A stretch of DNA of 45,542 bases, from the NCBI GenBank assembly GCA_002269645.1, contig NIVC01004450.1, positions 1-45,542 on the forward strand, read 5' to 3'. The translations under genes and the position numbers were made by a program. This document shows positions 3,945 through 29,520 of this stretch, one piece after another. Each line of letters starts with the position of its first letter. Within the stretch, counting starts at the first letter, position 1. This stretch comes from Macrostomum lignano (lineage: Eukaryota). The notes under the pieces were generated by a model, which saw only the letters and a list, made by a program, of their open reading frames with translations, was not told the DNA's origin and did no database searches.

Positions 3945-5701
3945 TTGCAGTTCACAATTGAAAATTGAATGTCAATAAACTTTGCAGGTGCAGCAGAAGC
4001 AGTTTTACAAGTCCCGTAGTTTTATGAGACAGCCCTTCTTGTTCACTGCATCACATTTGGCCATAGACAGCCCATGATTACGAAAAAGTCGATAAACTCG
4101 TAAAAGTTTTCTATTGACATTTTTGAGGTTCTGTAAGTCTATGACTGACCTTTCTCTACTTAATCGTCCATATCTCTTGAAACACAGATTCAAATCTCTT
4201 GCAATTGGTGTCATTTTAAAGAAGAGACTTGCCGCTTTCAAATGACACCAAGCACATACAAGTGTGACTGTCTATACGTCCACACCAAGCAAAAGTAACA
4301 CTACTTTCTGGACGCCCCTCGTATTTTGCTTTAACTTATACTCGTTACATTATTTACTTTGTTGGTTACAAAACTTCATATCAATTTTGTTGTGTTTTAC
4401 TTCTTGATCTTGACAATCTTTTCTCAATTTTGTTTAACTTTACATGGACAATACACTAAAAGACCTGATCCCAATTCCCAAATCCCGATCCCAATCCCGA
4501 GAAAAAAATTATTCCCAATCCCGATCTCGCCCGAAGATTTCAATCCCATCCGACCTCTAGTTGCCAGATCATATTATAAAATTGATGAAAAGCTCAAGTT
4601 TTGTTATTCAATCCCTTTCTATACATTTCATCATTTCCTCCATTTGAATAATTGTATAGGGCCTAACGCTAACAAAAGTGAATATAGATACATCCCTACT
4701 CTTGCTAAGAATTGTGGCTTACAATTAATTAGGGTAATTGCGCTTCAAAAATGCTTTCACACTGATATGCAAACAAGACTCCTATCTTTTACATAGGAGA
4801 TTGTATAATGTAAGGGGATCATAAAACAAAAGAATGCCAAATTTTTATTGCAGTCTTTCTATCTCCTATTTTTTGCTATGAATTTTTATTTGACCCATAT
4901 TTTCTAGTGCCTCTTAAAACTATATGAACTTCAAACTTTGTATGAAATTTTTACCAAACATATATTCAAATATATTCAAAACTTCTAACTGTTGACTGTC
5001 CATATTTATTTTAACAAACAAAAGTAGCACTAAGTCTAAATGGTTAAAATAGATGCCTATTTTTTAGCAGCAAATACTGTTCTTTACCCCAATACGGCAA
5101 TACATGCTTCATTGCTAAGTATTGTCTTCATAGGATGCAGCAGACAAACTGTCTACCCTAGGCCACAAGGTCTTTATTTAAAATTAGGCCTAGCCTAAGC
5201 CTATTGGCTATTTTATTAGGCCCCTATAATAAATAAAATGAGCCTATGACTAGCCATACACAGCACGCAGGCTTATATTGTATTGGCCCCTACTGGTAGT
5301 GCTACTATAATAAAAAGTAGGCCTACTAAACTGCATACGGTACACAGTATCAATGATTGACCTGATCTGACTAACATATATCTGTCAGCACTCAAAAAGA
5401 AAAAAATACGTAATACTGTCAAAAACATTAAGAAAGCCAGGGTTCAAAACGCTGTTCTTAAAGACGTTTTTACAATTTCGTATGGTTGGATTTTAAATCT
5501 TATCTCGCCGATTTATTAAAAATCTACTTTCCTTTGTTTAAATTGTAAACAATAAAATTTAAAAAAACTTGTAACAAAAAGTATTTTGACAAGCAAGTAC
5601 ACAAGATAGGATATGCTACAAATGAAAAAAGAGTCAGAAAAGAGCTCACTGGTGTAGCTAAAATATATGAAGTCATGAATAGCTAAAACAGTTATGCAAA
5701 C

Positions 5702-11614: not shown

Positions 11615-11717
11615 AGTAGTATACGTTTTTTTGACACAAAGCCGATTTCCTTATGGCGAAATACATAGTAAGTACAGGCCCAAAAAATGGCAGAGTCCGA
11701 AATTTCATGTGCACGCA
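11615..11717 (+). repeat. Maverick left TIR
   Basis: AGTAGTATACGTTTTTTTGACACAAAGCCG...; first 83 bp identical to the reverse complement of the right end. Confidence 0.95.
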
Positions 11718-12172
11718 GTCTGAAATTCCATGTGCACGCAGTCTGAAATTCCAAGTGCACGCTAAATATCTTTTACGCAACGTGATTATTCAGACGAATT
11801 GCATATCCACCTGTCCAAAATACAAGTAACCGATTCTAGCAATGGTGACACAAACACACTTCAAAGGATTCCATTCAAGACAAATTTACTCCAAAGCTAT
11901 TCACACATTTCAAGTGTTATTGAAATATTGAAAACTTGTGAATATTATCACCCTTTTGAAGAAAGATAGTAAATGATCTATTCTTGAGTGCCTATAGAAT
12001 TTTTGCACCAACTTGAGCAGATGGTTTACAGATACTATGTCAACAACTGCGTCAACATGCTTCTTCTTTATACTATATATATATACGAACACACTGACAC
12101 AGAAAATATTAAATAACTTAAACCAAGTTTACATTATACTACTTGTTCAACTATACTTACATCTTAAGTGAA

Positions 12173-12824
12173 ATGAAGCGATCACGTCAGCAGGAATTGG
12201 CCGAGCGCTATGTTAAACAAGGTAAGATAATCACCTACTCTAGTTCAGTTTTCTTTTTTAGATTGACTGTTCGCTATAGTTTAGTTTCTAGATTGATTGT
12301 TAGTTCGGTTTCTGTTTAGACCGATCCTCTGTTTGTTCAGTCTCTAGATTGATTGTCTGCTAGTTCGGTTTCTGTTTAGACTAATACTCTGCTAGTTCAG
12401 AATTTCTAGATTGATTGTCTGCTAGTTCGGTTTCTGTTTAGACTGATTCTCTGCTAGTTCAGTTTCTATATACATTGTATACATGCACCTATACCAAATT
12501 TCCCTCATCTTATCCATTATTATAGCATTCAAGAATGGTTTCTTCACGCGGCCACCTCCAGATCAGTGCAAACGCATTTGCCACGACACCACCACATCCA
12601 ATTCTGCTGCAAGAGCATCATATTCTACATCTCTCGCCAGAGTAACCTCGATTCATGTCGAGAGACAGACAACTGAGCTAGATCGCATTTACACAAGAAC
12701 TGATGTTATTCAGTCAATTAGGCAGCAATCGAACCCACGACCAACTGACCAACTGCAGTATGCACCACCACCACCATCACCAACCAGCTACAATGACCCA
12801 CCCAACAAAGCAAACTTGCAGTAA
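12173..12824 (+). CDS. Putative spliced ORF of unknown function (exons 12173-12221 and 12526-12824, ~115 aa)
   Basis: ATG at 12173, donor CAAG|GTAAGA, polypyrimidine acceptor TTATAG|CA at 12525. Phase 1 matches on both sides, giving MKRSRQQELAERYVKQAFKNGFF... Confidence 0.45.
12240..12470. repeat. ~60-bp degenerate tandem repeat within putative intron
   Basis: Recurrent CTAGATTGATTG(TCTG)CTAGTTCGGTTTCTGTTTAGAC units. Confidence 0.75.
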
Positions 12825-13294
12825 GCCTACAAGTACCAAACCAACGACAGCAACTGAAACACCATCATCATCAATTGCCATTTCTACCCAAGTTCAACCG
12901 CTGCTAAACTCGCCAATTATTGTACAGAAGGACATCAAGTCTGTAAAAGTCTCTCAAATGAGCACAGGCTTCTACCAAGTAGAATTAGCAAAGACCTGTA
13001 ATACAACTCAAGTATTTGAATATTGGGACCTATCTTAAAAAGACATTTTTTCTAACTCTTCATAAAATTTTGCCAGCAATGTGTCCAAGTAATTGCTCTT
13101 TTAGTATATATCAAACAAGTCTGTAATCAATAATATAATCTCTATAAATTCATTATTCTAAAAAATTCTTTCAATTTTATTCACCATTCATTGAAATTAT
13201 TTAATTCAATAAAAAGTCAATATCTTGTACAGTCATCATTAAACAAAAATTATTAATCCATGCAAATAATTTTTTTTTCATACGTTTCTTTAGC

Positions 13295-14190
13295 CATGGT
13301 CTGGCTTTTGCCTCAACAGTATGATTTAGCTGTGGTCCAGCTTTTGCCTCAACAGTATGATTTAGCTGTGGTCCAGCTTTTGCCTCAACAGTATGATTTA
13401 GCTGTGGTCCAGCTTTTGCCTCAACAGTATGATTTAGCTGTGGTCCAGCTTTTGCCTCAACAGTATGATTTAGCTGTGGTCCAGCTTTTGCCTCAACAGT
13501 ATGATTTAGCTGTGGTCCAGCTTTTGCCTCAACAGTATGATTTAGCTGTGGTCCAGCTTTTGCCTCAACAGTATGATTTAGCTGTGGTCCAGCTTTTGCC
13601 CAACAGTTTTTAGCCGTGGTCCGGCTTTTTTGCCTCAGCAGTATGATTTAGCTGTGGTCTAGCTTAAAACTGCATCAACAGTGATTTAGCTATAGTCCAG
13701 GCTTAACTACCTCAACGATGATTTAGCTATAGTCAAGGCTTAACTGTCTCAACAGTAATTTTAGCTGTTGTCCAGACTTAACTGCCTCAACAGTGATTTT
13801 AGCTGTGGTCCAGGCAACTGTCTCAACAGGGATTTAGCTGTAGTCCGATTAGCTTAACTGTCCAGTTATTTAGCTGTGAGCCAAGCAGCAGCACCCGTCT
13901 CAACAGTGAGAATTAGCTATGGTCAGCTTTACCTCAACTGTGATTTGGCTGCTGTGGTCTAGCATAACTGACTCAACAGTAATTTTAGCTGTAGTCGTCC
14001 AGCTTAACCACCCGTCCAGTTTTATAACCATGGTCCAGCTTAACCACCGTCTCAACGTACAGCGATTTAGTCGTGGTCCAGCTTAACCGTCTCAACGTAC
14101 AGTGATTTAGCCATGGGTCTAGTAGCAATTAACCGTATCAATAGTGATTTAGCCGTGGTCCAGCTTAACTGTCTCAACACAGTAATTTAG
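13295..14190. repeat. 36-bp minisatellite inside the Maverick, perfect then decaying
   Basis: About 8 near-perfect copies of CAGTATGATTTAGCTGTGGTCCAGCTTTTGCCTCAA (13317-13600), followed by progressively diverged copies to ~14190. Confidence 0.95.
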
Positions 14191-14816
14191 CTTAGTCCAA
14201 ACAGCATTTGTGTGTCAACTGCACTGACTGCATGCGGTTATAGCAGCGGCAGTCATTATAGTCCCAACAAGCTGCGCGTCGCAGCATGATAGTGTAACTC
14301 TATATAGCTTCTGCTCAATATAGGACTGCAAAAGCTGAGTTACAACTATACCTTTTTCTGTTTGAAAAGTAACACTCTATATATAGGTTACTCAAGCAAT
14401 CTCTTGTCACCGTGCGAGCTAAAAAATTCCAACATGCAAGCAAAACTTTCAATAAATTAATTTCATAGCACCGCGTGCAGCTTATTTTTACTCTAAAATC
14501 CAAGATTGCTAATTTTTCAAGTCGCAAAATATTTTAATTACATTCTACTTGAGAACAAAACCAATCTAATGAAGCAGCAACCAGCAGTCTTCTTATTAAA
14601 CGCTTGCCATCGTGTTACTCTTGCAAATTTATAACTAGTGTGCCTAAGATTCATTAATTTTATTGTATAAAATATCAACCTACATTTGCGTAAAATTAGA
14701 CCTAATCATGCAACCCACCCTAGAAACTTATGCCACCTTTGGCACGCAACAATGTCTTAATCAGCACGCAACAATTAAATTTGTTTACTAGTTCACAAAC
14801 AGCATGCAATGCTTGC

Positions 14817-14824
14817 TATAAATA
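14817..14824 (+). promoter_or_regulatory. Canonical TATA box candidate upstream of the SSB-like gene
   Basis: TATAAATA 85 nt upstream of ATG 14902. Confidence 0.4.
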
Positions 14825-14901
14825 CAAGACCCGAAATGTCAATTTTTCATGAGCTCAATCATTACAGCAAAAGAAATACTATATTCAATTGCTTGTAAGA
14901 C

Positions 14902-16100
14902 ATGGCAGCTTGCATCAAGACGGAGTCAATTGTACGCTCCGACTCGAGTCCGATTTTTTACGTTGGAGAGCAGTCTACAACCACGACTGGTTCGTCCTGC
15001 CAGTTTCGATCTATTGCGTGGAAACCATCAATCGAGTGTACAAAATGGTACCCAATTATATTGCAAACCAAGGCTCCAATGGAGCTTTTTCGTGGAATCG
15101 CAGAAAGGCCAGAGCTCGATCATCCGTCTTGCAGACACGACTCTCGCGACGCAGTAAGTGTCCAATTTCATCCAGACAGCTGCGATAAGGAACTCTTCCA
15201 CTCTCTCCGGTGAGCACCATATTAAATTTATACAATTAATTTTAGGAAACTATATTCATAATTTATATAATGTTTTGCAGTCAAGTCGAAAAAGGTCTAT
15301 CGGTCAAGTTGAACGAGATTCAAGATGCTCGACCCTTGGCACGACTAACAAAACCAGCTCATCAGCATGCTAACGACGTCCTCGAGTTTGTGCCTCAACA
15401 ATGGCTGGCTATAAAGCCTGCTTACCCTTGTGCCACAATCAGGATCAGCAACGATCATCCACACGGGAAGGAGGTGTCCATTTCCGATTTCAAAGGTGTC
15501 AGCGGTACCTACCAAATGACAGTGCAAGCAACGAGCTTGTATTGTCCAAAAGGCTGCCTCGTCTGGCGCATTACATTCGCTGTGCGCTCTCTGACACTCA
15601 TAGAATCTTCCGACAACATGTTGCAGCGCCTCGACATGTTCAAGGGAGTGCTTGCACACCTACCCGCGACCAAGTCAGCAATTAGAAGCAGGAGTCCGTC
15701 CCCAACATCTACCTGTGAGCAAGAAGAAGCAAATGAACAAAGCCTGCAGAATTCAAGCCAGGTGACACCTGCCAAGTCACCTGCAAAGCGTCGGTCTACC
15801 ACCACCGTATCGAAGAAGTCGACTACATCGAATGCAGCGCCAGCCTCTATTGAACCGCCGCCTAAAAAGCAAGTTCGAAAACGCAGCGGTGCAAAACAGC
15901 AAAACAATTCTGCCGAAGCTGGTGCAGATGGCACAGACTGGGTGGAGGCTCCACCAGCAAAGATCTTGGTGAGTACACCTGCCTCTGGAACCAGGGTAGC
16001 GTCCAAGGAGACAGCATTTTTAAAGCGTGCTGCTGCGGACGCTACTACAGCTAGCGTGTCTTCATCGGACGACTCGTACAGCAGCTCTGATGATGAGTAA
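14902..16100 (+). CDS. Spliced 375-aa protein, candidate OB-fold ssDNA-binding protein (exons 14902-15209 and 15281-16100)
   Basis: 71-nt intron CG|GTGAGC...TTTTGCAG|T with matching phase 2. PIILQT..M..FRG and GTYQMTVQATSLY...WRITF patterns recall T7 gp2.5/NCLDV-type SSBs. Basic linker and acidic tail SSSDDSYSSSDDE. Gene structure is well supported; the function is inference. Confidence 0.6.
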
Positions 16101-16310
16101 CAAAATTTTTGACTAATTTTATCCAAGTTTTAACTAACTTATTCCACTATATTTATCAAATTTTTGGCTAGGGAAATATTATTTTTTAGGGAAAAGCTCA
16201 AAACATTTTTTGCTACTCCTTGTACGCTAACCAGGTTTTGTAATTTAATATTAGAATTTACGATAGTATAGTCATGTTTAACTTTTCTTATTATTTATTT
16301 TCCGTTTTAG

Positions 16311-16868
16311 CGACTTGTCCTATTAATAGTTACTGCGAGTCTGAAGCTGCACCCGTTTGAAAAATTTGATTTAAAGCAGACCAAACAGAAGCTACAGACC
16401 AGAAACCGGTTTTGCAAACTATTCCTAAGCCGACCAACAATGCTAAAGACAATTTATTCAAATGCTAAAATCCAACTTTATCCAGCAGGAAAACTAACTA
16501 TATATGGCTGTAAATCAAATTCTCAGATAGTCTCAGTTTTACGATTTATCAACGACACTATTAATTGTGTAGATTTTGATTCAGTAAAAATTCAGAGCAG
16601 TACCTATGTCGGCTTTATTGGTCATCTTTGGCCAAAATTCGGTTTCTCTAGTCTAAAAAGATATGCAGGCTACTATTCGAATTATCTGGTTGGATACGAT
16701 GCAGAAAATTTCCCACAAGCAGTTTCTGTTAGATCAGCATCAAAACCAAGGCTTTTTTGTAACATATTTTTTTCGAAAAAGTTTGTTATTATGGGCGTTC
16801 AAAACACTCATGAATTGAATAATATTCTTAACCATGTCAAGGATTTTTTAATCTCTGTTAATAACTAA
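16311..16868 (+). CDS. Divergent TATA-binding-protein (TBP)-like protein, full two-repeat core; 5' exon not identified
   Basis: Frame is open from the splice acceptor TTTTAG|CGA at 16311. Repeat 1: LIVTASLKL..KFDLKQ...AKIQLYPAGKLTIYGCKS (TBP: NIVSTVNL..KLDLKT...TTALIFSSGKMVCTGAKS). Repeat 2: KIQSSTYVG...YDAENFPQ...KPRLFCNIFFSKKFVIMG (TBP: KIQNMVGS...YEPELFPG...KPRIVLLIFVSGKVVLTG). Confidence 0.8.
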   Translation, partial: RLVLLIVTASLKLHPFEKFDLKQTKQKLQTRNRFCKLFLSRPTMLKTIYSNAKIQLYPAGKLTIYGCKSNSQIVSVLRFINDTINCVDFDSVKIQSSTYVGFIGHLWPKFGFSSLKRYAGYYSNYLVGYDAENFPQAVSVRSASKPRLFCNIFFSKKFVIMGVQNTHELNNILNHVKDFLISVNN

Positions 16869-17090
16869 ACTTAACAAGTAAACAATTGCTGTCAAATCGC
16901 AGTTGCGATGCATTCTTTTACAAACATTTTGTCTTTTTTTTTTATTTACCAATTGTTTTCTCTAATAGTAAACGTGTCAGCTATACCTATAACTAACCAA
17001 ATCATCATTTTTCTTACAGCCGCAAATGACAAACCGGATCATCTATTAATATTATGCTCGATACGCTCGTTGTCGAGCTAGGTGCACACA

Positions 17091-18152
17091 ATGCCGCGTG
17101 CACAATGCCAAATCTGCAGAAAAAAGTTCAGTAATCAAGCCGAGCTGCATGCTCACTCGCATGGTGCTTGTTTTTCACCGCAACGATTACTGACCGGATC
17201 GCTGCAAAACCTGATCGAAAACCCACCAGATGGGTGGTCCATCGCTTTGCGCGAGTCAGCTCATCGTGGTCGGGTAAATTTTGTCGAATTTACTCCCACT
17301 CTTGAACAACAAGGCAACAGCTCTGGCGAGTTACTTCCTGGCGAGTTGATTGCGTCTTTAAGAGAACCAATATTTAAAATATTGGAAAAAATTGGCTCAC
17401 CCAGTTTATTAATAAGAGTCTGCTTTCACTTGAAAGTGACACTATTTCGACCGAAAACAGCAGCAGACGACAACGATGGCTCGAGCAGCGAAGAGATCAT
17501 TTCGGTCTATTTTAATACCAACATTGCGACAATATCATTTGATGAGACGATTGCAAACAGTGACATGCTGTTATCTCCCGAGGCCTACAATGACTGGTTC
17601 GCACGCGTTATTAATCAGTTGTTAATAAAAATTGACAATTTTCAATCTCGAGGTAGTAATTGGCAATATAGAGCAATCGAGCAGCTAGACTTGATGCTCT
17701 GCGTTTATCGCAAAAGCCATGCAAGCACACTGTCAACAAATACGTCCCACGGTGGTGTGGGGGCGGGCGGCGGCAGTGGTGGTGGTGGCGGCGGTGGTGG
17801 TGGTGGTGGTGGCGGCGGTGGTGGTGGTGGTGGTCGGCGGCGGCGGCGGCGGCGGCGGGCGCGGGGAGTCCGGTCCAGTCCGGTCCGGTCCAGTCCGGTC
17901 CGGTCTGGTTAAGCAGCAATCGTTTAAAGTTCCAGTCTCAATCGGTCGCAAAGCTGGAGCAGTACTGCTTCTAAAGCCGCACAGAGCAGTTTAAAGCATC
18001 AAGACTATTTAAGAGTCTTACACAAGCGACAACTTGTGTTTTCGCGCATGCAGTCCATTCGTTCTCGAAAACAGAAAGTTTTTTTTGATGCAACAAAGAA
18101 AACTTGCACTAAGCTTCTTCGATACGAAGCGATCCTGGACAAGTTCAATTAA
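17091..18152 (+). pseudogene. Protein-primed DNA polymerase B remnant: N-terminus fused to extreme C-terminus
   Basis: C2H2 finger CQICRKKF...HAHSH and the Maverick pPolB N-terminal motif F.SRGSNW...I..L.L. After a microsatellite, a shifted frame (~17965-18152) reads SKAAQSSLKHQDYLRVL...SIRSRKQKVF, resembling the pPolB C-terminal tail. No exonuclease or polymerase motifs lie between. Confidence 0.7.
17752..17907. repeat. Compound GGT/GGC, CGG and GTCCG/GTCCA microsatellite
   Basis: (GGY)n, then (CGG)n, then pentamer repeats, seen directly. Confidence 0.9.
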
Positions 18153-18481
18153 TTCGCTACCCTTTGGACACTGGCACTTGGCTAATTAATTAACAATATG
18201 CTCTGATCTCTTTTGTTGTACAAAGTAATAGCATGCTATAGAAGACTGTAACCCATCATTAATTTTTTCATTGATCATTATTTACAATAAATAAATGATA
18301 CCGGCATTCGTTTAAATTATAATTTTAGCACTTTTTTGTGTTTAATTATTTGAAAAAGTATATTTTTTATAGTTAGATTCTCAAGACTAAGCTTGTGTTT
18401 GTAGTAGACGTAAATGTAGTGCTATCGTTCATGTTTCAAGAAAAAAAACTTTTTTTTAAACTTTCAGCTACAAGAATCGAC

Positions 18482-18964
18482 ATGAATCCCGAGCAGCAGC
18501 AGCAACAACAACTAACTGATCGTAAGCTTTTAGTTGAACGTCTATACGATTCGGCAACGATTCCGACCCGAAAAACTGTCGGGTCGATCGGGTATGATCT
18601 TTGCGCTGGCGTCGATGGTACCATTCCGGCCTACGAGTCCCGGAGTGTGCGAACCGGACTCAAAATTCGCTTACCGCCTGGTACCTATGGCAGGATAGCG
18701 GGACGTTCCAGCATGGCTCTGCACAGCTTATTTGTTGGCGGTGGCGTAATCGACCCCGACTATACTGGTGAAATCTGTATAGTCTTGTTTAATTACAGTC
18801 CGGAAGACTTTGAGTACTATGCCGGGCTCAGTATTGCACAACTGGTTCTGGAGCAGGCCGTGCTTGCTTCAGTCTATGTGACTGAAGCAGACAATTCGAT
18901 TCGGATGATTGAGCCGCCGACCAAGCGGCGCGGCTTTGGCGGCTTTGGCAGCACTGGCCAATAA
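18482..18964 (+). CDS. dut: dUTPase (trimeric type)
   Basis: All five motifs: GYDL, GRIAGRSS, GVIDPDYTGEI, IAQLV, RRGFGGFGSTG. Likely ATG at 18482; the ORF caller used an upstream GTG. Confidence 0.95.
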   Translation: MNPEQQQQQQLTDRKLLVERLYDSATIPTRKTVGSIGYDLCAGVDGTIPAYESRSVRTGLKIRLPPGTYGRIAGRSSMALHSLFVGGGVIDPDYTGEICIVLFNYSPEDFEYYAGLSIAQLVLEQAVLASVYVTEADNSIRMIEPPTKRRGFGGFGSTGQ

Positions 18965-19055
18965 GTATAATAATAATAATAAACTGATTTTTTTCTTTGG
19001 TGATTGGTGCACTATGCGAGAGCTTTGTAAATACTATAAGCAATTTTAAAAATTT

Positions 19056-19499
19056 ATGCCTAAAATATATGTTGTAAAAATGTCTCCAGCGAAAGATCGA
19101 GGTTTTAAAAAGAAAAAGAAGAGCATTCGTAAAAAGAAGAAATCTATTAGAAAGATTAATAAAAAGCAACAAGGTTATGGTGTCGTAAATTGGTTAATTA
19201 ATCATTTACCATTTGAAGCACATTTACCCGGCGGATATCAGTTTTGTGGTCCAGGTACGCAACTGCAAGCTAGGCTAGCAAAAGGACAACGAGGAATTAA
19301 TCGGCTTGACAATTTGTGCATGCTTCACGACGTGGCCTATGATAAAAATTCTGACGTGCAAGAGAGGTTAAAAGCTGATAAGCTATTAGAATCTGGTGCA
19401 CGAGAGATTGCCCACGATCCGTCTACTGGTTGGAAAGAAAAACTAGCTGCGAAGTTGGTTACCAAGGTTATGCAAGTTAAGCAACGCCTTATTGCTTGA
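19056..19499 (+). CDS. Parvovirus-VP1u-type phospholipase A2 virion protein (PLA2X-like)
   Basis: HLPGGYQFCGPGT calcium loop and LDNLCMLHDVAY catalytic HD. Lys-rich N-terminus followed by QQGYG. Confidence 0.9.
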   Translation: MPKIYVVKMSPAKDRGFKKKKKSIRKKKKSIRKINKKQQGYGVVNWLINHLPFEAHLPGGYQFCGPGTQLQARLAKGQRGINRLDNLCMLHDVAYDKNSDVQERLKADKLLESGAREIAHDPSTGWKEKLAAKLVTKVMQVKQRLIA

Positions 19500-20211
19500 A
19501 AATGCAGCAGCCATACAATATGCAACTAGCTCACGATTCTACATTTATTATGCTGGACCTTCAAACTCGGGTAAAACTGAATGGACGTTGCGTTTGTTGA
19601 CTGAACGAAAAGAATTATTTGATAAAAAACCGTGCCGTCTTGTTTGGTGCCATGGATCAAGTTTGAAACCAGACGATCAACAACGAATTAGAACATGCTG
19701 GCAAAAAAGCGGTCTTGACCCTATTGTTTTTGTACCCGAATTCACACCACAGATGATTAATCGTTTTTTACCACACGATTTGGTTGTTGTTGACGACTTG
19801 CAAAGCGAGATTGCTAAGTTGCCAGAATTTACTAGTATGTTTACAAAGCATGCGCATCATATCCCTTTGACTTGTCTGTACCTTTGTCAAGGTCTTTTTA
19901 ACAAGTCTGATCCAGAAGCACGCATGCGAAGTTTATCAGCTAGTTATATTTGTCTAACTCGTAGTGTGCGCGATCGAACCACAGTTGAACATCTCGGTCG
20001 ACAAATGTATCCGCGTAATAGTAGGTTTCTAGTGAATGTGTATGAAGACGCAACAAATAACAAACCTTTTTCATATTTATTCATTGACCTGCGGCAAGTG
20101 ACACCAGATTTTTTACGATTGAGAACAGGAATATTTCTGGTGATGAACAAGTTGTCTATACTCGTGAATGTGATGCAAAGTTTGTGTAATATTATTATAA
20201 GCAAATTATAA
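19492..20211 (+). CDS. FtsK/A32-like DNA packaging ATPase
   Basis: Walker A GPSNSGKT, Walker B VVVDDL, and C-terminal KPFSYLFIDL...RLRTGIF typical of Maverick ATPases. No in-frame ATG before Walker A. Confidence 0.92.
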   Translation: MLENAAAIQYATSSRFYIYYAGPSNSGKTEWTLRLLTERKELFDKKPCRLVWCHGSSLKPDDQQRIRTCWQKSGLDPIVFVPEFTPQMINRFLPHDLVVVDDLQSEIAKLPEFTSMFTKHAHHIPLTCLYLCQGLFNKSDPEARMRSLSASYICLTRSVRDRTTVEHLGRQMYPRNSRFLVNVYEDATNNKPFSYLFIDLRQVTPDFLRLRTGIFLVMNKLSILVNVMQSLCNIIISKL

Positions 20212-20246
20212 ACTGTTGTCAATATTAGTTTGTGTTTTATTTCAAA

Positions 20247-21236
20247 ATGAGTTTTTACGTTTTTTTGCCGTCAAACGATATCAGTTACGAAACCAACTCG
20301 CCTAATGAATTTCGAGTGCGACTAACTGAACCAATAAATTTATTGAACGGATTCTTCGAGGTTGCACTAGTTGAATTACTGTGCCATGGAGCAATTACGA
20401 CGCCAAATGCTCATCGTGAGCGTCGATTTGAAGTTCCATATTTTGCGGACATTGACTCAATAATACGATTAAAGAAAAACTATTGGGGTCGTGTTTGGGC
20501 AGAGGCAGACTTGGATGCTTACGTTTCCTGGCAACCGTCTGGTACAGATGAAAAATTTGCCTGGCTTTTACGAAATTCAGGCGAAAAAACTATTGGATTA
20601 GAACTACCAGTTACATTTATGGACGCTTTCAAATTTGACTCTTGGAAGAAACTTTCTGGACTTGTCTCGGAAAAATTATCAAAACCTGCCGCTGGTAGTG
20701 TACAACCACCGGATGGTTCATACTTGGATTTGATAAAAAGTCTCGACAATACTCTAGCGCTAGTACCTGAGAACTATTATGTTTTTTATTGTGTTCTATC
20801 GCCTGGTGAAGCTATACGACTTGTTTCGCATGGAGACTATCTTCGAAAAACGGAAGGAGAAGTGTACATCAAAGTACACCAATATTGGTTGAGAAATCGT
20901 GTTTGGCGCATTAACAAAACCTACTTGGATGCTGTGCTACCTTCTCCGATGCCTAGTAAAACGGTTTACATGTACTGTTACACAGATATAATCGAGTATC
21001 AAGCAGTGGGAAGTACATCAGTACCGTTGCTTCGAGTTGTGGAACTCCAACAAAAGAAAAACGGAGAACTTATACGCGATAGCAGTGCATTGCAAACACC
21101 CTACTACTTGAAAACAAATCGACAACAAATTCACGAGATTTCGATTCGACTATCGGACCAGCGCGGAAAACCGTTTAATTTTGATCCGGGAGCACACGTT
21201 GTTGTCGTACTGCATTTTAAACATAGGTCGGACTAA
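20247..21236 (+). CDS. Minor capsid protein (penton, single jelly-roll)
   Basis: N-terminal MSFYVFLPSN...FRVRL..PI.L...FEVALVE and C-terminal YCYTDIIEYQ.VG....PLLR...ISIRL.DQ.G..F.F....VVVVLHF match Maverick pentons. Confidence 0.88.
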   Translation: MSFYVFLPSNDISYETNSPNEFRVRLTEPINLLNGFFEVALVELLCHGAITTPNAHRERRFEVPYFADIDSIIRLKKNYWGRVWAEADLDAYVSWQPSGTDEKFAWLLRNSGEKTIGLELPVTFMDAFKFDSWKKLSGLVSEKLSKPAAGSVQPPDGSYLDLIKSLDNTLALVPENYYVFYCVLSPGEAIRLVSHGDYLRKTEGEVYIKVHQYWLRNRVWRINKTYLDAVLPSPMPSKTVYMYCYTDIIEYQAVGSTSVPLLRVVELQQKKNGELIRDSSALQTPYYLKTNRQQIHEISIRLSDQRGKPFNFDPGAHVVVVLHFKHRSD

Positions 21237-21292
21237 TTTATAAGCAAAGATTAATTGTGTAATAGAAAATTTTGTGAATTTGTTTTGTAAGA

Positions 21293-21725
21293 ATGAGCGA
21301 ACTAACAGAAAAAGGAAAACAAAATGCTCGCTCATTGTGTCAGTGTGCTTTTTTACTACAAATTGTTTATCGGCTAAAGCATCCAAAGCAGAGAAAAAGT
21401 TTTTTACAAACACTTTCAGAGTCGGAGATACGATGTCTAGTAGACTTTCTGTTTAATATTATTAGTGGACGTATTAAAATTAGTAACTGTAACAAAAGAC
21501 GACTCGAGAAGCATCGCAGATATAGCTATACGCCAGCTTTTGGAACAGAAGACTCCAATTACTGCAAAAAGGAAAATACTTGTCCAACACGGATGATTTT
21601 TACCTTTTTTGGCTCCAATTATTGCCGCTCTACCTGCTATAAGCACTGCGCTTGGGATAACGTCTGGAGTAGTTGGTACCGCCGCGGGAGCAGCGAATTT
21701 AATACGATCAATTCAACGAAAGTAG
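21293..21725 (+). pseudogene. Maverick small basic core-type protein (PW/cupiennin-like; naming uncertain) with frameshift and nonsense codon
   Basis: RKSFLQTL...IRCL...NII.G.I....KRRLEKH, then a +1 shift near 21520 gives AIRQLLEQK..ITAKRKILVQHG*FLPFLAPIIAAL...RK*. TGA at 21594 sits where GG|F is expected. Confidence 0.8.
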
Positions 21726-21735
21726 TAGGAATATA

Positions 21736-22425
21736 ATGCGAACTAACGAGAGTAGTAGTTTTCAACGAATGTATCTAGTACCTGAATCTGTGTATCAATC
21801 TGCATGTCAAGGTGCAGAGCAAGGATCGTCACCAACTGCTGAGACACCTCGAAAAACTGAAGTTTTAGACGCACCGCAAGATGCTCTGGCAAAAAATATG
21901 GTGGAAATGAGAGACCAAATGGATAACTTGGACAAGGAAATGGAAAAGGAGCCAAATTACACAGCTCAATTGAAACGAAGCAGATTGGAAGACAAACTTT
22001 TAAAATTGCGCAAAGTCTATCGCACTGGAGACGAGGACAATCTGTCACTTGTTCGCAAAGGGACTACTGTAAGAAGTTCATATGCCAGCGAATCAAGGGA
22101 AATTCCTAAAGTTTTTTTACCACGTTTCGAAGCTCTCGCTCAAAACCTATTTTCGGACATGGACAAGAATGCAGAACCAATGCTGGCTAATTTGACTGAT
22201 GCCGAGATACAAGATCTCATGGAATATGTTGTTCGAGACAGACCGCTTAAGCGACACGAGACTCAACCGCCTAGTGGACTAAAAACATTTTTAGACTTTC
22301 TTCGAAAACGTGGAATCGCAGCAAACCAAATCGGGCGTCATGTACGAAACGAGCTAATGTCTGCTCCAAAAACTGTTGCAAAGGAGGATCTTAGTCTGTT
22401 TGAAAATTATCAAACACTGAATTAA
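21736..22425 (+). CDS. Conserved Maverick ORF (PZ-like; naming uncertain), 229 aa
   Basis: N-terminal RMYLVPE and C-terminal PPSGLKTFLDFL...QIG patterns recalled from Maverick ORFs; position in the virion block. Confidence 0.55.
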   Translation: MRTNESSSFQRMYLVPESVYQSACQGAEQGSSPTAETPRKTEVLDAPQDALAKNMVEMRDQMDNLDKEMEKEPNYTAQLKRSRLEDKLLKLRKVYRTGDEDNLSLVRKGTTVRSSYASESREIPKVFLPRFEALAQNLFSDMDKNAEPMLANLTDAEIQDLMEYVVRDRPLKRHETQPPSGLKTFLDFLRKRGIAANQIGRHVRNELMSAPKTVAKEDLSLFENYQTLN

Positions 22426-22526
22426 GTTGTTTTAAATGTTTTAACAAAATTGATTCGAGCACTATAAGCTTTTTAAAAAGGTTACTTTTTTGTTTATTAA
22501 AAATATATAGTTTAATAAGACAAACC

Positions 22527-22715
22527 ATGTCATCTATCTTCCAAAAACTTTTGATTCGTCTCTGTGAGTTTTTTTGCATAAAATCTGAATGTGTGCCGTT
22601 TCTGGGAAAGGAGCACAACGAGGATACTGACGGAGATTCGATCGAGGCTTCGTTCTTTTGTTGCAACTGTCAAACGACTAGCATCAATCTAACTGATGAT
22701 GAAGCGAGTGCGTAA
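22527..22715 (+). CDS. Small Cys-rich/acidic ORF, 62 aa, unknown
   Basis: ATG-initiated, preceded by TATAAGC at 22463, and overlaps the integrase start as neighbouring genes do. Confidence 0.35.
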   Translation: MSSIFQKLLIRLCEFFCIKSECVPFLGKEHNEDTDGDSIEASFFCCNCQTTSINLTDDEASA

Positions 22716-23856
22716 GGAAATTGAAGAATTTTTGACGGATTCTTTTTTTAACTTGAACAAGCCTACTTCATTTAGTGGTAACAAGACTATACTTGTTCGT
22801 TAAGTACGTAAAAAGTTTCCACAGATTACGAACAAAGTTGCAAAGCGCGAAGTTGATAATTGGGTGCGATCAACAAATGAGCATCATTTATTTCGAAAAA
22901 CACGACGAAACTTTCCAACTCCAAAAATTAGTGTGCCACCAGTTGCAAAGTTTCAGTTTCAAATCGATTTGGCAGATTTACCTCAATACAAGACGGAAAA
23001 TCGAGGTTATCGTTACATACTTGTTCTTATCGACTGTTTTACTAGAGTTGTACGACTAAGACCATTGCGTACAAAGAAGCCTTCAGAAGTTAGTCAAGTA
23101 TTACTAGAGATTTTTCGAAGTGGTTTTAAGCCTGTTTATTTACAAGGTGATGCTGGTATGGAGTTTCTCGGAAGAGCTACACGTCAAATGCTGAAACAGG
23201 AAGGAGTTCGATTTTTTGTTAGCCAAAGCAATTACAAGGCAAGCATGGCTGAACGATTTATCCGCTCGTTAAAGGAACGTCTATTACGATACTTTCGAGC
23301 AAAAAATTTACCTCGATGGTTTGACATTTTGCCACAATTGGAAGATAATTTCAACTCTAGTCCTCATCGATCCTTGAGTGGAGAAACACCAAAACGTGTA
23401 GAGACAGACCCGCATTTACAAGGAATTTTGTGGGACAAAATGTTTGCGAAGTCGTACACTAAAAATAATGAGAATAAATTTAAAGTTGGTGATTGGGTTA
23501 GAATTACACGACGTCGAGGAACATTTGAAAAAGGATACACTACGACTTGGAGTAATTCAAAATATCGCATTCAGCGTGTACACTTGACAGACCCGCCAAT
23601 GTACGAATTAGTGGACCCTGAAGATGGATTTGAAGTGCTGAAAGGAAGGTTTAACCAAGCGGAACTAATGTTGGTAAACGAGACAGATGAAACACCTAAT
23701 GAAATTGAAAAAGTTATTGAAACTGATCGAGCGAAAAATGGAAGTCGTCTGTATCTAGTAAAATGGAAAGGTATGCCAATCTCAAGAAGTCAGTGGTTAA
23801 ACGAAAATGATCTTGACGCAAAGACTGCTAAACTATTTTCTAAAGTGTATAAGTAA
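22696..23856 (+). pseudogene. Retroviral-type (rve) integrase with C-terminal chromodomain, premature stop at codon 36
   Basis: DDE motifs QIDLADL, LQGDAGMEF and SMAERFIR; chromodomain YLVKWKG...SQW. ATG at 22696 is in frame and encodes the conserved F...KPTSFSG N-terminus, but TAA lies at 22801-22803. Confidence 0.92.
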
Positions 23857-23897
23857 CACATGAATTGGGATTGCATGACGAAGAGAAGACTGTTGAA

Positions 23898-24356
23898 ATG
23901 GATCCTATTTTTGCTTTTTATTCTGGTCCGAATAGATCTGCTGAAGGTGGAGGTGGATATGGCATTCCTGTTTACGAAGGTTACGGTTTTTTGTCAAATT
24001 TGGCGGACAGATTGGTGTATCCTGTACTACGCAACGCAAAGAAAGATTTCTTGGATCGTGGTCTGGAGTATTTGAAAAGTGCGACAGCAAAAATTGGTAT
24101 GGGTCGGAAGCGTCACTTGGACACAGAATCGAGCGAAGAGATGTTTAATACACCTGCAGTCTCGAGACCAAAGCGAAGGAAAAGAACCAGTGGAGTGGCT
24201 ATAAGCTTAGGAAAGAAGAAACGGCAAAAGAAACGACGAACAAGACAGTGTGGAAAGGGACGCGTGAACAAAAGAAAACGCAAGATTACCGGTGGTATAG
24301 GAAAACGTCGAACTGCTACTGCAAGCAAGAAACTTTTTAGTCTGTTTGAAAAGTAG
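23898..24356 (+). CDS. Basic Gly/Arg/Lys-rich core (genome-condensing) protein
   Basis: Y..P...G.GYG.PVY.GYGF..L...L.PVL N-terminus and highly basic C-terminus, located immediately before the capsid gene. ATG at 23898. Confidence 0.7.
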   Translation: MDPIFAFYSGPNRSAEGGGGYGIPVYEGYGFLSNLADRLVYPVLRNAKKDFLDRGLEYLKSATAKIGMGRKRHLDTESSEEMFNTPAVSRPKRRKRTSGVAISLGKKKRQKKRRTRQCGKGRVNKRKRKITGGIGKRRTATASKKLFSLFEK

Positions 24357-24357
24357 C

Positions 24358-25680
24358 ATGAACCATTTGCTTGGACCTGATATTGCTGCTCTTAAAAGTG
24401 AATTGTCGCTATTTGATCAAAGTCCTGTTCAGTTTAGTGTTTTGGATAATCGATATACTAACATTCAACCGCAACATGGTATTACAAAAGGATCACCTAT
24501 CGAATTTGAAGTTGTGCCTGCAGGCGATTTGTATTTGGATCTACAAGAAACTGTGCTCACGGTATGCTTCAGCGTTAGTGATAGTGAAGGTGAACCTATA
24601 GATGCAACGAAAAATTTTGTTTGTTTGAATAATTTGGTTATTGGAACATTGTTTGAAGACGTTCAATTTACTATTGGCGATACTGTAGTTGAAGGTGGTA
24701 GTTTTATGTATCCATACAAGGCTATGCTTCTCACATTACTGGAATATGGACATACAGCTCAGAAGGCTGGTTTACTGCCGTGGGGGTTTTACAAGGATAC
24801 AGCTGGTAAAATGAATGCAACAAGTGAAAACGATGGACGAACAAAGAGGCAGGCGCTCATTGCTAACAATAGGCGGTGCACTGTATCGGGGCCGTTATTC
24901 TTGGATTTGTTTCGTCAGCCTCGGTATCTACTATCAAAGACACCACTATGGATCAAGCTCATACCGGCAAAAAGTAAATTTGTCCTGAGCGGGTCAACAT
25001 TAGAAGCTGGTGCGGTTTTAAAAGACTATGAGATCAAGTTTTTGCGTGCAGAACTACGATTGCGGTTTGTTCAACCCTCGCCGAGTGTTATCAGTGCACA
25101 TGCTCATGGACTTAAAAGTCACAATGCATTATATCCGCACCGAAGTCTAAGCCTTGGTACGTTTACTATACCCCGAGGATCGTCTAGCCATACGCATGAA
25201 AATTTGTTTCCTAGTGGGGTACCACGGCTTTTATTGATGGCAATCGTAAGCAACAAGGCATTCAATGGAAGCATGGACACAAATCCGTTCAACTTTGAGC
25301 ATGCAAATGTGAGCAGCATTGGTGTGTTTGTGAATGGAGACTCGGTACCATCGCGTCCGCTGCAGACAAACTTTGGAGATGATTGTGTGACAGAGTATAA
25401 TTTTTTGCTACAACAGCTTGGAATCTATCTACAGGGACGAGATATTGGATTTAATATGCTGGATTACGCCAATGGTTACTCAATTTTTGCATTCAGTCTT
25501 GGAAGTGAACCTGGTGTCGGACGGGGAGTGCAACTGTATAAGGAAGGAAATGTAAAACTAGAGTTACGCTTCAATGCTGCAACTAGTACCGTGTACAACG
25601 TCATATTTGGAGGTATATTTGACAAGCAACTGCAACTGACTGAACTTCGCGACATTGTTCCTGGCACAGTATGGAAGTAA
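24358..25680 (+). CDS. Major capsid protein (double jelly-roll, hexon-like)
   Basis: ELSLF...PVQ.S...PIEF.V...D.YLDL..T N-terminus; GPLFLDLF.Q.RYL; FNF.H.NV..I...VNG; ~440-aa open frame. Confidence 0.93.
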   Translation: MNHLLGPDIAALKSELSLFDQSPVQFSVLDNRYTNIQPQHGITKGSPIEFEVVPAGDLYLDLQETVLTVCFSVSDSEGEPIDATKNFVCLNNLVIGTLFEDVQFTIGDTVVEGGSFMYPYKAMLLTLLEYGHTAQKAGLLPWGFYKDTAGKMNATSENDGRTKRQALIANNRRCTVSGPLFLDLFRQPRYLLSKTPLWIKLIPAKSKFVLSGSTLEAGAVLKDYEIKFLRAELRLRFVQPSPSVISAHAHGLKSHNALYPHRSLSLGTFTIPRGSSSHTHENLFPSGVPRLLLMAIVSNKAFNGSMDTNPFNFEHANVSSIGVFVNGDSVPSRPLQTNFGDDCVTEYNFLLQQLGIYLQGRDIGFNMLDYANGYSIFAFSLGSEPGVGRGVQLYKEGNVKLELRFNAATSTVYNVIFGGIFDKQLQLTELRDIVPGTVWK

Positions 25681-26234
25681 TTGATTCTATCCTAGATCGT
25701 GGTGTAACAGATCGCTTCCTTCGCAATGTTGTATCGAAATTGTGCGCACATTTTTTAAATGTTGTATTTCTTGGTGTTTTTCCTCAAAACTTTGTTGGTG
25801 GACTTGCACGCTTACCTTTAGACGGTAAAGACTATTTTTTTATCGTTAATACTGACGTCTCCAACCTGCCCGGAAAACATTGGGTATGCGTTTGGGTTTA
25901 TGGTCATCGAGCAGGTCGCGGTAGCAAACGACTTGGTGAATATTTTGATTCTCTTGGTCTAGTACCATTGCCAAGAATAGCAAAATGGCTAGGAAAAGAA
26001 TGTGGAAATTCGAAAAATTGGTGTTATAGTCGCTTTGCTATCCAAGACCCACAGAGTGGAAGTTGTGGATTTTGGGTAATTTTTTATATTTTTCATAAGT
26101 TGACTATCAGAGGAAACCTAGAGTGTTTTATTCGAAGCGTTTTTAAACGGAATATAATTCGCACTGGTTCGTTTCGATACTTGTATGCTAAATTACGCAA
26201 TTTTGTTTTACGAGTGCTGCCTCAATATTTGTAA
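25671..26234 (+). CDS. Adenain-like cysteine maturation protease
   Basis: FLGVFP, IVNTD....GKHWV (His), EYFDSLG (Asp), Q...SGSCG (Gln/Cys); overlaps the MCP stop codon. Confidence 0.93.
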   Translation: MEVIDSILDRGVTDRFLRNVVSKLCAHFLNVVFLGVFPQNFVGGLARLPLDGKDYFFIVNTDVSNLPGKHWVCVWVYGHRAGRGSKRLGEYFDSLGLVPLPRIAKWLGKECGNSKNWCYSRFAIQDPQSGSCGFWVIFYIFHKLTIRGNLECFIRSVFKRNIIRTGSFRYLYAKLRNFVLRVLPQYL

Positions 26235-26468
26235 ACTCGCTAATTTGTGCGTCAAATTGTGTTTGTATCTAGTTGAAATATACAATACTGCTTGAAAAGA
26301 AGAATTTAAATGCGTTAAGTTATACGCGAAATAAGCTTTGTGTCAAATTGAATTTTGGTTGGGCTTGTAATTAGCAGCATTCATTGCGGATAGAATTTAG
26401 GTGGATAGACAGGTGTTTGCGTAAAAGTGATTCAGCTAATTGGTTAATTCATTGCGTAAAAGCTAGTT

Positions 26469-26571
26469 TGCGTGCACGGCAAATTTCAGACTCTGCCATT
26501 TTTTGGGCCTGTACTTACTATGTATTTCGCCATAAGGAAATCGGCTTTGTGTCAAAAAAACGTATACTACT
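26469..26571 (-). repeat. Maverick right TIR
   Basis: Reverse complement of 11615-11717 with 4 mismatches, ending ACTACT. Confidence 0.95.
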
Positions 26572-27455: not shown

Positions 27456-27564
27456 TCACCCCCTAATGAATGCAACCCTGAATCCGGGTTGTAAGCAGCG
27501 GCAACTACTAGCGTATTTGAGTTTTCAACTCTGTTTTTCCCCGCAGACAGCCGCATCTGCAGAA

Positions 27565-29520
27565 ATGAGCGTGGTGTGGAAGATCGCGGGCATCGCACTT
27601 ATTTTTGCACTGGTGTCGTTTGCCTGCGTTGTGGAGCTTCGAGCCTACGAGCAGAGCCAGAGGGATGTAATCTGCAACGAGGGCGAGTGCCACAGGTCAC
27701 CAGAGGTCAACAGCACCAGGCACAAGGAGGTTTGGTTAGCGTGCCTGTCCTCCAGGTGTTTTCTTGCGTCGCTGGCGTTGGTTGCCATGGTAACCCTGGA
27801 GTGTGTAGCTCTAAGACATAGAATAGTTGATTCTGTGAAAATTGGCAGCGTGCTGATTAAAAATTTCCCATCTTGCGTCAAGGGAACGCCCGAGCTCTGC
27901 AGCCTGCCGTCCGATCTCCTCGTCAAGGCGTTTTGGCTCTTCGCCATCCCGAACTGCCTGTCGATGGGGATCGAGGTCGGCTGCGAGATCGATGAAATCT
28001 TGAAACACAAGGAGTGGGAGTCTCACTCCGCAACCATGATTGCCTGGCGGGTACTGCTGTTCCTCTGTACCATTGTTCAGATCCGACTGGTAGCCAAGTA
28101 CGCATTCCAGTCCATTCAGCTGAGGCTGGGACTCTCCTGGATCATCCTGTCCGCCATCATGTCATTCAACATAGCCGTGTGGTTCTCCACCATCGGCCTG
28201 GAGGTTCAGGGCATCAACGGCGCAGAGAAGGTGATTCCGAAAGGCTCCAATTGCGACGAGAACTCGTTGGGTCATTTCAACGAGCTGCTGTACCCGTTTC
28301 AAATTGAGTACTGCGTCATGGGCTCTCTGATGGCCTTCACGCTGATGTCCAACCTGGGCAGGGTGGCGAATCACCTGCAGAGGCAGCATTTTCCCGATTC
28401 AGACGCTGTTGAAAGGAAAATCAAAGAACTGCTGCAGCCTGCAGAAAGCATGACCACACACCGACAATTCTTGCCCAACTTCGAGGTCATTCGTCAGCAT
28501 TCGTTAATATTTGTCGCCGAGCTGCTGCTGCTTATCCTCTCAGTGGCCTGTGTGGCGTTCGTGCGCTTTGACGATCCGAACAACAGCGTCAGAGGCATTG
28601 TCTTCAACTTGACGCTGCTGTTGTTGCATTGCTTTGGGATGGCGACTCTCCTCATCATGTGTTGCTACATCAGAGGCGACAACAAGCAAAAGATCAGCGC
28701 CACGCACTTTCCTGACCGGTTGCTGCTGTGGCTGGGCACAGCCGCCATCCTGCTGAACAGCGTGTACAGGCTGTGGGGCAACACAAACGTGTTAATTTTG
28801 GAGGGCAATAGAGTTGAGAATACGACCGACCACAGCGTGCCGGAGTACCCGATGGTCTCGCGAAATCTGACCGAGGCCAATAAAATCAGACTGGAACTGC
28901 AGATTGGCAACGCGATATCCAACTTAGTTCAGAGCGCCGCTCAGACCGCTCTGCTGGAGTGGATCCTGATCAGCAGGTTCTCAAACCACAGCAAGCTGAC
29001 CGAATGGTGCAAAAGTCTCCTACGGTTACAATCACAACCACGTCAGGACCAACCACGTCAGGACCAACCACGTCAGGACCAACCACAACGTCAGGACCAA
29101 CCACAACGTCAGGACCAACCACGTCAGGACCAACCACAACGTCAGGACCAACCACAACGTCAGGACCAACCACGTCAGGACCAACCACAACGTCAGGACC
29201 AACCACAACGTCAGGACCAACCACATCAGGACCAACCAATTAGTCCCAAAATCTGCGCCCTGCTCAACCTTCTGATGGTGATCAACGGAGCTGAATGGAT
29301 TCTGAGCGCCCTGTGCTTCCCGTTCTTCTTTCCTGAGGATCAGAAGGACGCCCTCTCGCTACTGCTGACGCCGCTGCAGGTGTTCTACGCGTTCCACTCA
29401 GCCATTTGCATTCACGACTTCAAAGGGCATCTGAAAATGGAGGCCGCTGAAGCCGATGACGAGCAAGTTGCAGAGGATCCATTGGCTGTTAATTTTGAAA
29501 ACATCTTCGGTCAAAACTGA
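27565..29520 (+). CDS. Otopetrin-like proton channel, intronless coding region
   Basis: Multi-TM protein with LLYPFQIEYC (family LYPF.IEY), LVQSAAQT, INGAEWI and QVFYAFHS (family FYRFHS). Likely ATG at 27565 follows a splice acceptor at 27546. Confidence 0.85.
   Translation: MSVVWKIAGIALIFALVSFACVVELRAYEQSQRDVICNEGECHRSPEVNSTRHKEVWLACLSSRCFLASLALVAMVTLECVALRHRIVDSVKIGSVLIKNFPSCVKGTPELCSLPSDLLVKAFWLFAIPNCLSMGIEVGCEIDEILKHKEWESHSATMIAWRVLLFLCTIVQIRLVAKYAFQSIQLRLGLSWIILSAIMSFNIAVWFSTIGLEVQGINGAEKVIPKGSNCDENSLGHFNELLYPFQIEYCVMGSLMAFTLMSNLGRVANHLQRQHFPDSDAVERKIKELLQPAESMTTHRQFLPNFEVIRQHSLIFVAELLLLILSVACVAFVRFDDPNNSVRGIVFNLTLLLLHCFGMATLLIMCCYIRGDNKQKISATHFPDRLLLWLGTAAILLNSVYRLWGNTNVLILEGNRVENTTDHSVPEYPMVSRNLTEANKIRLELQIGNAISNLVQSAAQTALLEWILISRFSNHSKLTEWCKSLLRLQSQPRQDQPRQDQPRQDQPQRQDQPQRQDQPRQDQPQRQDQPQRQDQPRQDQPQRQDQPQRQDQPHQDQPISPKICALLNLLMVINGAEWILSALCFPFFFPEDQKDALSLLLTPLQVFYAFHSAICIHDFKGHLKMEAAEADDEQVAEDPLAVNFENIFGQN
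29032..29238 (+). repeat. In-frame 15/18-bp coding repeat (QDQPR/QDQPQR)
   Basis: CAGGACCAACCA(CAA)CGT units within the otopetrin-like ORF. Confidence 0.95.

Follow-up and report, generated by a model that had tools for sequence, protein, structure and literature searches.

Viral TATA-binding proteins (TBPs) are already known from herpesviruses, giant viruses and mirusviruses. In beta- and gammaherpesviruses, the viral TBPs KSHV ORF24, EBV BcRF1 and HCMV UL87 are paired with a late box TATT, and ORF24 is portrayed as a 752-aa protein which acts within a complex of six proteins and for which modelling indicates no binding of TFIIB (excerpts of PMC12529657). TBP is present in 59% of mirusvirus genomes (excerpts of PMC10132985). 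The locus described here is a TBP exon within a Polinton of Macrostomum lignano. It may share with the herpesviruses the use of a non-standard late box (TATT there, candidate TATAAG here) and differs from ORF24 in having kept its TFIIB stirrup. No genes corresponding to the Pol II-binding N-terminal domain or to the five herpesvirus partner factors were found among the ORFs of the element. Most plausibly, the TBP would work in the manner of the late TBPs of herpesviruses but is not one of them, and homology is claimed for the fold only. With the proteins of giant viruses and mirusviruses it has in common that it is a divergent viral TBP. Those viruses, however, have genomes of hundreds of kilobases, which in mirusviruses include RNA polymerase subunits, whereas the present gene belongs to an integrating element of 15–20 kb that encodes none.

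The element itself resembles Polintons, Mavericks and adintoviruses in its AGT-starting inverted repeats, polymerase B, integrase, protease, ATPase, capsid candidates and phospholipase A2 (PLA2)-like gene. In the literature on Polinton-like TBPs, no other description of such a gene was found, although subscription papers, Repbase entries, figures or supplements may list one. Within the passages concerned of PMC8502044 and its preprint, TBP is named only in a figure legend, as a label on related MELD viruses, in the section on non-animal datasets, where no function, box or splicing is given. Term look-ups for TBP in PMC10748475, PMC10120064, PMC12220804 and 10.64898/2026.08.29.747986 returned none. 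What is new is that a single animal genome harbours three lineages of TBP whose boxes differ, and that a TBP exon lacking a start appears to be wired to a replication-cassette gene or to a host leader.

The TBP exon and its Polinton

The window, i.e., the whole stretch of 45,542 nt that was analysed, contains a 15-kb Polinton (11615–26571) bounded by inverted repeats, and the TBP exon lies inside it. The left terminal inverted repeat (11615–11717, +) starts with AGTAGT and is the partner of the right one (26469–26571, −), the two forming a 104-nt arm pair that is 96% complementary. A 6-bp target-site duplication flanks one of the three copies with both ends read (C877, as opposed to the window copy and C84). 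In C84, C2373, C424 and C2693, six-base flanks match between rather than within contigs, which suggests recombination among copies or assembly chimeras. Further Polinton hallmarks are a retrovirus-type (rve) integrase and a protein-primed DNA polymerase B, the latter scored in the diverged locus L033, as the window keeps its 5′ part only.

In the left arm, a gene without Pfam match (12174–13038) has a candidate first exon of short length and, near 12223, a strong donor. A 27-nt tandem array (13260–14200) decays rightwards and differs in length among copies. The 43 nt before the early gene (14794–14836) contain a TATA and are common to other loci in RNA and DNA contigs, where they appear at loose ends. 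A two-exon gene, discussed below as the upstream gene, and the TBP exon are followed by the 5′ remnant of the polymerase gene (17091–17988, +), in which about 3.2 kb are missing relative to a longer form of the element; the homologue in L033 matches DNA_pol_B_2 and Endonuclease_7.

The late arm encodes a dUTPase (18431–18964, +; Pfam PF00692) and a parvovirus-type PLA2-like protein (19056–19499, +; Pfam PF08398 above cut-off). Next is a gene with a Walker A motif in its translation (19504–20211, +), which from its place in the gene order we take to encode the packaging ATPase; it has no specific profile match. An ORF without Pfam match (20247–21236, +) is a candidate for the minor capsid protein. 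A retrovirus-type integrase with chromodomain (22693–23856, +) scores above cut-off for rve and Chromo. It is followed by a conserved 440-aa ORF (24358–25680, +), a candidate for the major capsid protein, which is kept across subfamilies and in a second Polinton family and matches neither Pfam nor PDB. The arm ends with an adenovirus-type protease (25671–26234, +; Peptidase_C5 below cut-off, E 0.035).

The window copy has broken genes for polymerase, integrase and ATPase, with a frameshift close to the 5′ end of the ATPase-like gene and an in-frame stop, also near the 5′ end, in that of the integrase. The longer form measures 19.6 kb and is 95% identical to the window copy. The 15-kb deletion form, its broken genes notwithstanding, has multiplied to 22 or more near-identical copies, each with an intact TBP, and RNA contigs carry letters of both forms, 18 of 23 variant positions agreeing with the longer one. 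On the host side, a mariner-like element with 223-nt inverted repeats (2226–4323), a single-exon otopetrin-like ORF (27466–29520) and a tyrosine-recombinase-like fragment (30225–30761) were observed, together with exons and tandem-repeat introns of a gene (34767–40442) which we take to be 2-oxoglutarate dehydrogenase-like.

The TBP exon (16311–16868, +) consists of 185 open codons covering two TBP repeats. There is no start codon before codon 44, where the first ATG (16440) opens an ORF of 142 aa; the longer frame spanning both repeats had been proposed by eye in the initial annotation and holds. The frame matches Pfam PF00352 over two stretches (31 bits, cut-off 22.9). Among TBPs from four other subfamilies, one scores above the cut-off, two lie just below and one has no match. 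A profile built from 14 relatives covers both repeats of solved TBPs (E 1e-9 to 1e-5). An AlphaFold model based on the alignment of these 14 relatives reaches a mean pLDDT of 94.6, with strands and helices in TBP order; a single-sequence fold was unusable (pLDDT 46). In Foldseek comparisons with PDB, the top 44 matches (E≤0.001) are TBP chains, the best at TM 0.75–0.76. Viral TBPs in BFVD match at TM 0.6–0.7, and solved cellular TBPs in PDB match the model as well as viral TBPs do. The nearest Atlas clusters are viral (0.95–0.96). The profile and structure comparisons that had been suggested for this frame agree, and the exon encodes a complete two-repeat TBP saddle, a member of the PF00352 fold family.

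Copies, subfamilies and other TBP lineages

A genome search with the TBP exon gave 83 matches among 97 candidates, including 22 identical full-length copies and four at 99%; some copies contain stops. Other element genes adjoin the TBP at all 20 diverged loci examined, and the gene order, where not rearranged, is upstream gene, TBP, (kinase), polymerase. The window and these 20 loci form six subfamilies which are about 39% identical. A deoxynucleoside kinase gene follows or overlaps the TBP in other subfamilies (L031:5302–6000, L041, L044); kinase and TBP share one open frame in L041–L044, and the kinase is absent from the window's subfamily.

Mean identity between the six subfamilies is 38% for codons 1–43 and 39% for codons 44–185. 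Since the codons before the first ATG are as conserved as the remainder, they are probably coding and would need a spliced-on start. Purifying selection is evident from the comparison of copies, a test the initial annotation had proposed. Between the window and the longer form, codons 44–185 show dN 0.006 and dS 0.057, and dN is well under dS for these codons in all six close pairs. L031 and L033 give dN 0.30 and dS 1.21 for codons 1–43 and dN 0.20 and dS 1.56 for codons 44–185, i.e., dN far below dS in both parts. Over the six close pairs, constraint on codons 1–43 is weak (six synonymous vs. ten non-synonymous changes).

Against the host proteins, the identity of the exon's product amounts to 23% for TBP and 14% for TRF2. 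A family search, in which 150 of 330 candidates were scored, identified two more TBP lineages in the genome, with Polinton genes within 10 kb at 19 of 20 sampled loci. The second, high-copy Polinton family (L066–L070, L099–L118) carries a different TBP gene, which opens with an ATG of its own, lies last in the late cassette, overlaps an upstream ORF and converges on the polymerase; a third TBP family was seen in L106. One homologue of the second family's TBP bears the label Macrostomum lignano. All three Polinton TBP lineages have Tyr-Pro at the position of F116 and Thr at that of V161. A tree of 22 sequences and 170 columns, from which P0006, L102 and the giant-virus TBPs were left out and in which family 1 forms a very long branch, splits the Polinton TBPs from host and archaeal TBPs with a bootstrap of 100. 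The phylogeny with host TBP and TRF that the initial annotation had called for was obtained in this way, but it lacks the giant-virus TBPs also named there and therefore cannot name a donor. The low host identity, the grouping with other Polinton TBPs and the purifying selection point to an old resident rather than to a recent capture, so that the earlier view of a captured, fast-evolving TBP needs correction. At best, the aligned sequences suggest an old Polinton lineage of TBPs.

Protein searches for relatives of the family-1 TBP found only four proteins; two further matches were artefacts from repeat proteins. Pattern scans of viral contigs and one metagenome scan, which are insensitive and did not include eukaryotic genomes, revealed no relative. 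Another metagenome pattern scan gave three TBP-like matches on prokaryote-looking contigs without Polinton genes.

DNA-facing residues, promoter boxes and candidate roles

Residues were compared with host TBP as reference, using the yeast numbering tabulated in the relevant part of PMC12529657. The TBP exon has in common with cellular TBPs and TRFs the two-repeat saddle and the residues F190, P191, F207, R196, K211 and E188, all six of which are retained in 9/9 family-1 proteins. Both intercalating Phe of repeat 2 are kept (F190 as F134, F207 as F153). In repeat 1, the position of F116 is Tyr57, and F99 is lost, Ser40 or Arg41 standing in its place in a register uncertain by one. The Asn of both QN positions are replaced (N69 by Leu4, N159 by Ser96), as is the Thr pair T124 and T215 (by Tyr/Met). 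Two of the four canonical Phe are accordingly kept, one is Tyr and one is lost, and the Asn and Thr pairs are gone. These substitutions bear out the initial reading of both repeats and of the QN positions. Gln, Thr, Thr and Asn stand in place of L114, V122, V161 and L205 in all nine family-1 proteins. KSHV ORF24 likewise has polar residues at these four sites (Ser, Asn, Asn, Ser) and retains both Asn and all four Phe (table in PMC12529657), so that the loss of F99, both Asn and both Thr is the heavier change. Further differences from cellular TBP are that the gene is encoded by a mobile element and lacks a start codon of its own.

Across the nine family-1 proteins, eight of 15 DNA-contact positions are invariant, compared to 13 of 170 other positions (Fisher p 3e-5). 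A DNA face which was altered and then frozen in a polar form suggests a new fixed DNA target. The TFIIB stirrup is acidic (D130 and E132 in the TBP exon), with E188 invariant and E186 acidic or Asn, and the first stirrup is shortened relative to cellular TBP.

TATAAG, a tolerated TATA variant which host TBP may also read, occurs eight times on the + strand of the late arm (19035, 20196, 21239, 21638, 22463, 23848, 24200 and 25537), each time upstream of a late-arm gene start. These eight compare with a single occurrence on the − strand, 2.4 by expectation and none in the early arm. The extended word TATAAGC is found six times where 0.44 are expected (0/1000 simulations), and TAAG alone shows no enrichment. 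The box precedes eight of ten late starts (background 21%, p 1e-4), with the starts and the window of 15–240 nt having been picked after the boxes were seen. Late-arm genes without it are those for the ATPase and the dUTPase. All eight boxes are retained in the longer form, and whole late arms were compared for this one subfamily, i.e., the window and the longer form. Here, the early arm has TATAAA and no TATAAG, and the late arm has eight TATAAG and one TATAAA. In other subfamilies, the protease-proximal box is present at three of four loci, inside capsid codons for Y-K-E-G, and the constraint on these codons alone could explain it. Nor is the box purely late, since two subfamilies have a TATAAG ahead of the early upstream gene as well. 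The second Polinton family, which has a different TBP face, carries CTTAAG-type boxes instead. Their enrichment is modest (p 0.005–0.16 over eight loci) for a word which is palindromic. At L102, L108, L110, L111 and L118 they lie about 12–150 nt before late starts, including that of the family's own TBP gene.

The reading which we prefer, at a probability of roughly 60%, is that the protein is the element's own late-transcription TBP and mediates an early-to-late switch via TATAAG. The TBP would be made early, from a message whose 5′ end is supplied by splicing, and would take over from host TBP by binding the TATAAG boxes upstream of the capsid-arm genes. Its retained acidic stirrup would dock host TFIIB; host RNA polymerase II would then be recruited and the late genes activated. 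The outcome would be an early-to-late switch in a small element without a polymerase of its own. Supporting observations are the fold, the selection, the position in the cassette, the conserved splice signals, the distribution of boxes, and the transcription and splicing of the cassette. The altered DNA specificity proposed in the initial annotation likewise gains support, in that a replaced yet fixed DNA face would match a non-standard box before late genes. A TBP under selection and a box in front of the capsid-arm genes together have the anatomy of an early-to-late cascade. They bear on the timing of capsid genes in Polintons without RNA polymerase and on a virus-like cycle of animal Polintons. 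The three diverged families, two of them with different boxes, form a natural series for relating the TBP face to box specificity.

It is unlikely, although conceivable, that the protein instead serves all promoters of the element, or its replication or terminal repeats, and that TATAAG is nothing more than a common, strong form of TATA box. Such a general role would fit the two subfamilies in which TATAAG lies ahead of the early gene, as well as the location of the gene in the replication cassette adjoining the polymerase and the presence of the second family's box before its own TBP gene. The window's subfamily, with TATAAG in its late arm and none in its early arm, argues in the opposite direction.

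Somewhat more doubtful is a decoy or repressor which binds host TFIIB (or NC2, Mot1 or TAF1) or occupies promoters of the host, whose transcription or defence it would dampen. Host TBP may in that case be the reader of TATAAG. The invariant E188 of the stirrup, with its acidic or Asn neighbour E186, would suit a protein of this kind. So would the loss of F99, both Asn and both Thr, as in TRF2, which does not bind TATA and whose host representative has also lost intercalating Phe. The DNA-facing positions are, however, far more conserved than the remainder, the phosphate-binding R196 and K211 are kept, and boxes vary between Polinton families together with the TBP face. A pure decoy needs no conserved DNA face, which makes the TFIIA/TFIIB decoy of the initial annotation the weaker reading, although the acidic TFIIB stirrup on which it could draw is indeed kept.

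A passively inserted, decaying host TBP pseudogene, named at the outset as the copy-specific case to be excluded, is scarcely credible: low identity to TBP, an element copy with broken polymerase, integrase and ATPase, and stops in some TBP copies are in its favour, but it is contradicted by 22 identical and four near-identical full-length open copies among the 83 matches, by the same position at 20/20 diverged loci in six subfamilies, and by dN far below dS.

The 5′ end of the TBP message

In the E2 unit of adenoviruses, a DNA-binding protein and a polymerase are expressed early with alternative splicing, and some frames receive their first codons from an upstream exon; adenoviruses are not known to encode a TBP. 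The Polinton cassette is a similar early unit, with the difference that its host also offers trans-splicing.

The upstream gene starts with a segment (14902–15209, +) that is joined to exon 2 in RNA contigs and has homologues at the same place in diverged subfamilies. A GT-AG intron (15210–15280, +) separates the two; its removal, which unites the ORFs at 14902 and 15270 into one gene, is seen as a joint in 3/3 RNA-like runs and not in a fourth run. RNA evidence here means contigs from RNA-like runs, none of which is on record as RNA. Exon 2 (15281–16100, +) encodes a conserved domain, a basic low-complexity linker and an acidic tail. Its look-alikes in the Atlas (0.87–0.91) fall among clusters of giant viruses, a number of which contain DUF2738 (10% of members) or Pox_I3 (12%). 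For an OB-fold viral single-stranded DNA-binding protein, the Atlas values are 0.90–0.91 with low recognition. Comparisons with PDB, Pfam, PHROG and T7 gp2.5 were all blank, and a single-stranded DNA-binding protein is a weak lead for its identity.

A branch-point-like word, a pyrimidine tract and an AG acceptor at a conserved position (16275–16310, +) precede the TBP frame, and the acceptor TAG ending at 16310 doubles as an in-frame stop before it. Of the 20 diverged loci, 19 have AG and pyrimidine tract at this very codon, the 20th having lost that end; the acceptor is in frame at 13 loci and shifted at six by a downstream frameshift. The splice acceptor at which the frame had been proposed to open is hence well conserved, with phase 0, and the donor of any 5′ partner must also be phase 0. 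The intron-1 donor (phase 2), the donor near 12223 (phase 1 when read from its nearer ATG) and a spacer ATG (out of frame) were rejected.

A candidate donor with the required phase lies within exon 2, 342 nt upstream of the TBP acceptor (15969–15974, +), as an in-frame GTRAG at a K.L|VS peptide. This peptide is invariant inside the otherwise poorly conserved tail, and the in-frame GTRAG is present at 16/16 loci from six subfamilies, which comprise 14 of the 20 diverged loci besides the window and the longer form. Other Val-Ser pairs of exon 2 have GTRAG in 0/9 cases, with p 0.017 for the third base alone; in the coding sequence of the element as a whole it occurs at four of 21 Val-Ser pairs, counting the candidate donor site. 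No conserved acceptor was found upstream of this tail donor. Cis-splicing from here, which would place 332 codons before the TBP, has in our view an even chance of supplying the 5′ end.

In RNA contigs, the TBP frame is covered in two runs and in part in a third, with no joint reaching 16311. One contig continues without a break between 15879 and 17750, across both donor and acceptor. RNA, which the initial annotation had suggested for finding the 5′ exon, shows the upstream cassette to be transcribed and spliced but reveals no joint at 16311 in these contigs. The missing joint and the unbroken contig weigh against an abundant fusion in whole worms; a leader would be invisible to contigs. Depth in X6 and X7 drops in the spacer or over the TBP, an observation not used as evidence.

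A possibility to be taken almost as seriously is that the spliced leader of the host is added by trans-splicing to the TBP exon, as to a downstream cistron in an operon-like transcript. The leader would supply the AUG, giving a free 186-aa TBP and no fusion. According to excerpts of the respective sources, flatworm spliced leaders donate start codons (PMC9851317) and 30% of genes are trans-spliced in Macrostomum lignano (PMC8629364). The published 35-nt leader ending in ATG has an exact match in the genome and 126 matches within two mismatches (0 in the control), and at four of eight genomic loci read it is followed by a GTAAG donor. The trans-acceptor word YTNCAG is found in 5/6 subfamilies and AATAAA 48–52 nt before the TBP acceptor in 2/6. 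The polymerase frame likewise opens after CAG without an ATG near its start in four of six subfamilies (L031–L036, L041–L044), so a spliced-on start would be needed there too. A cis joint should moreover be visible in contigs, whereas a 35-nt leader tip is likely to be pruned. Trans-splicing alone, however, leaves the in-frame donor unexplained, which is conserved in 6/6 subfamilies. The window's TBP acceptor ends in TAG, and no leader-like loose end at 16311 is among the RNA-contig loose ends listed. Furthermore, an upstream cis donor normally beats trans-splicing (excerpts of PMC8629364). The two routes are compatible and can coexist. A start at Met44, although this residue is invariant, is improbable, since it would remove the first strand and helix of the modelled fold.

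Both routes would be unusual, the one in fusing TBP to a replication protein, the other in having a viral gene take its start codon from the spliced leader of the host. The former permits a bolder proposal, which we hold to be rather unlikely: alternative splicing would exchange the acidic tail of the upstream protein, presumed here to bind single-stranded DNA, for a TBP with switched specificity, and the fusion, sitting on genomes that replicate by strand displacement, would fire the TATAAG capsid promoters only there. If true, a single protein would tie late transcription to DNA replication, for which herpesviruses need a six-protein complex, and Polintons as a group would carry an old TBP lineage in which DNA face and promoter box change together. 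As for the genomic leader matches (L091–L094), four of the eight are without a GTAAG donor; three of these have no GT at all and may be retrocopies of trans-spliced messages.
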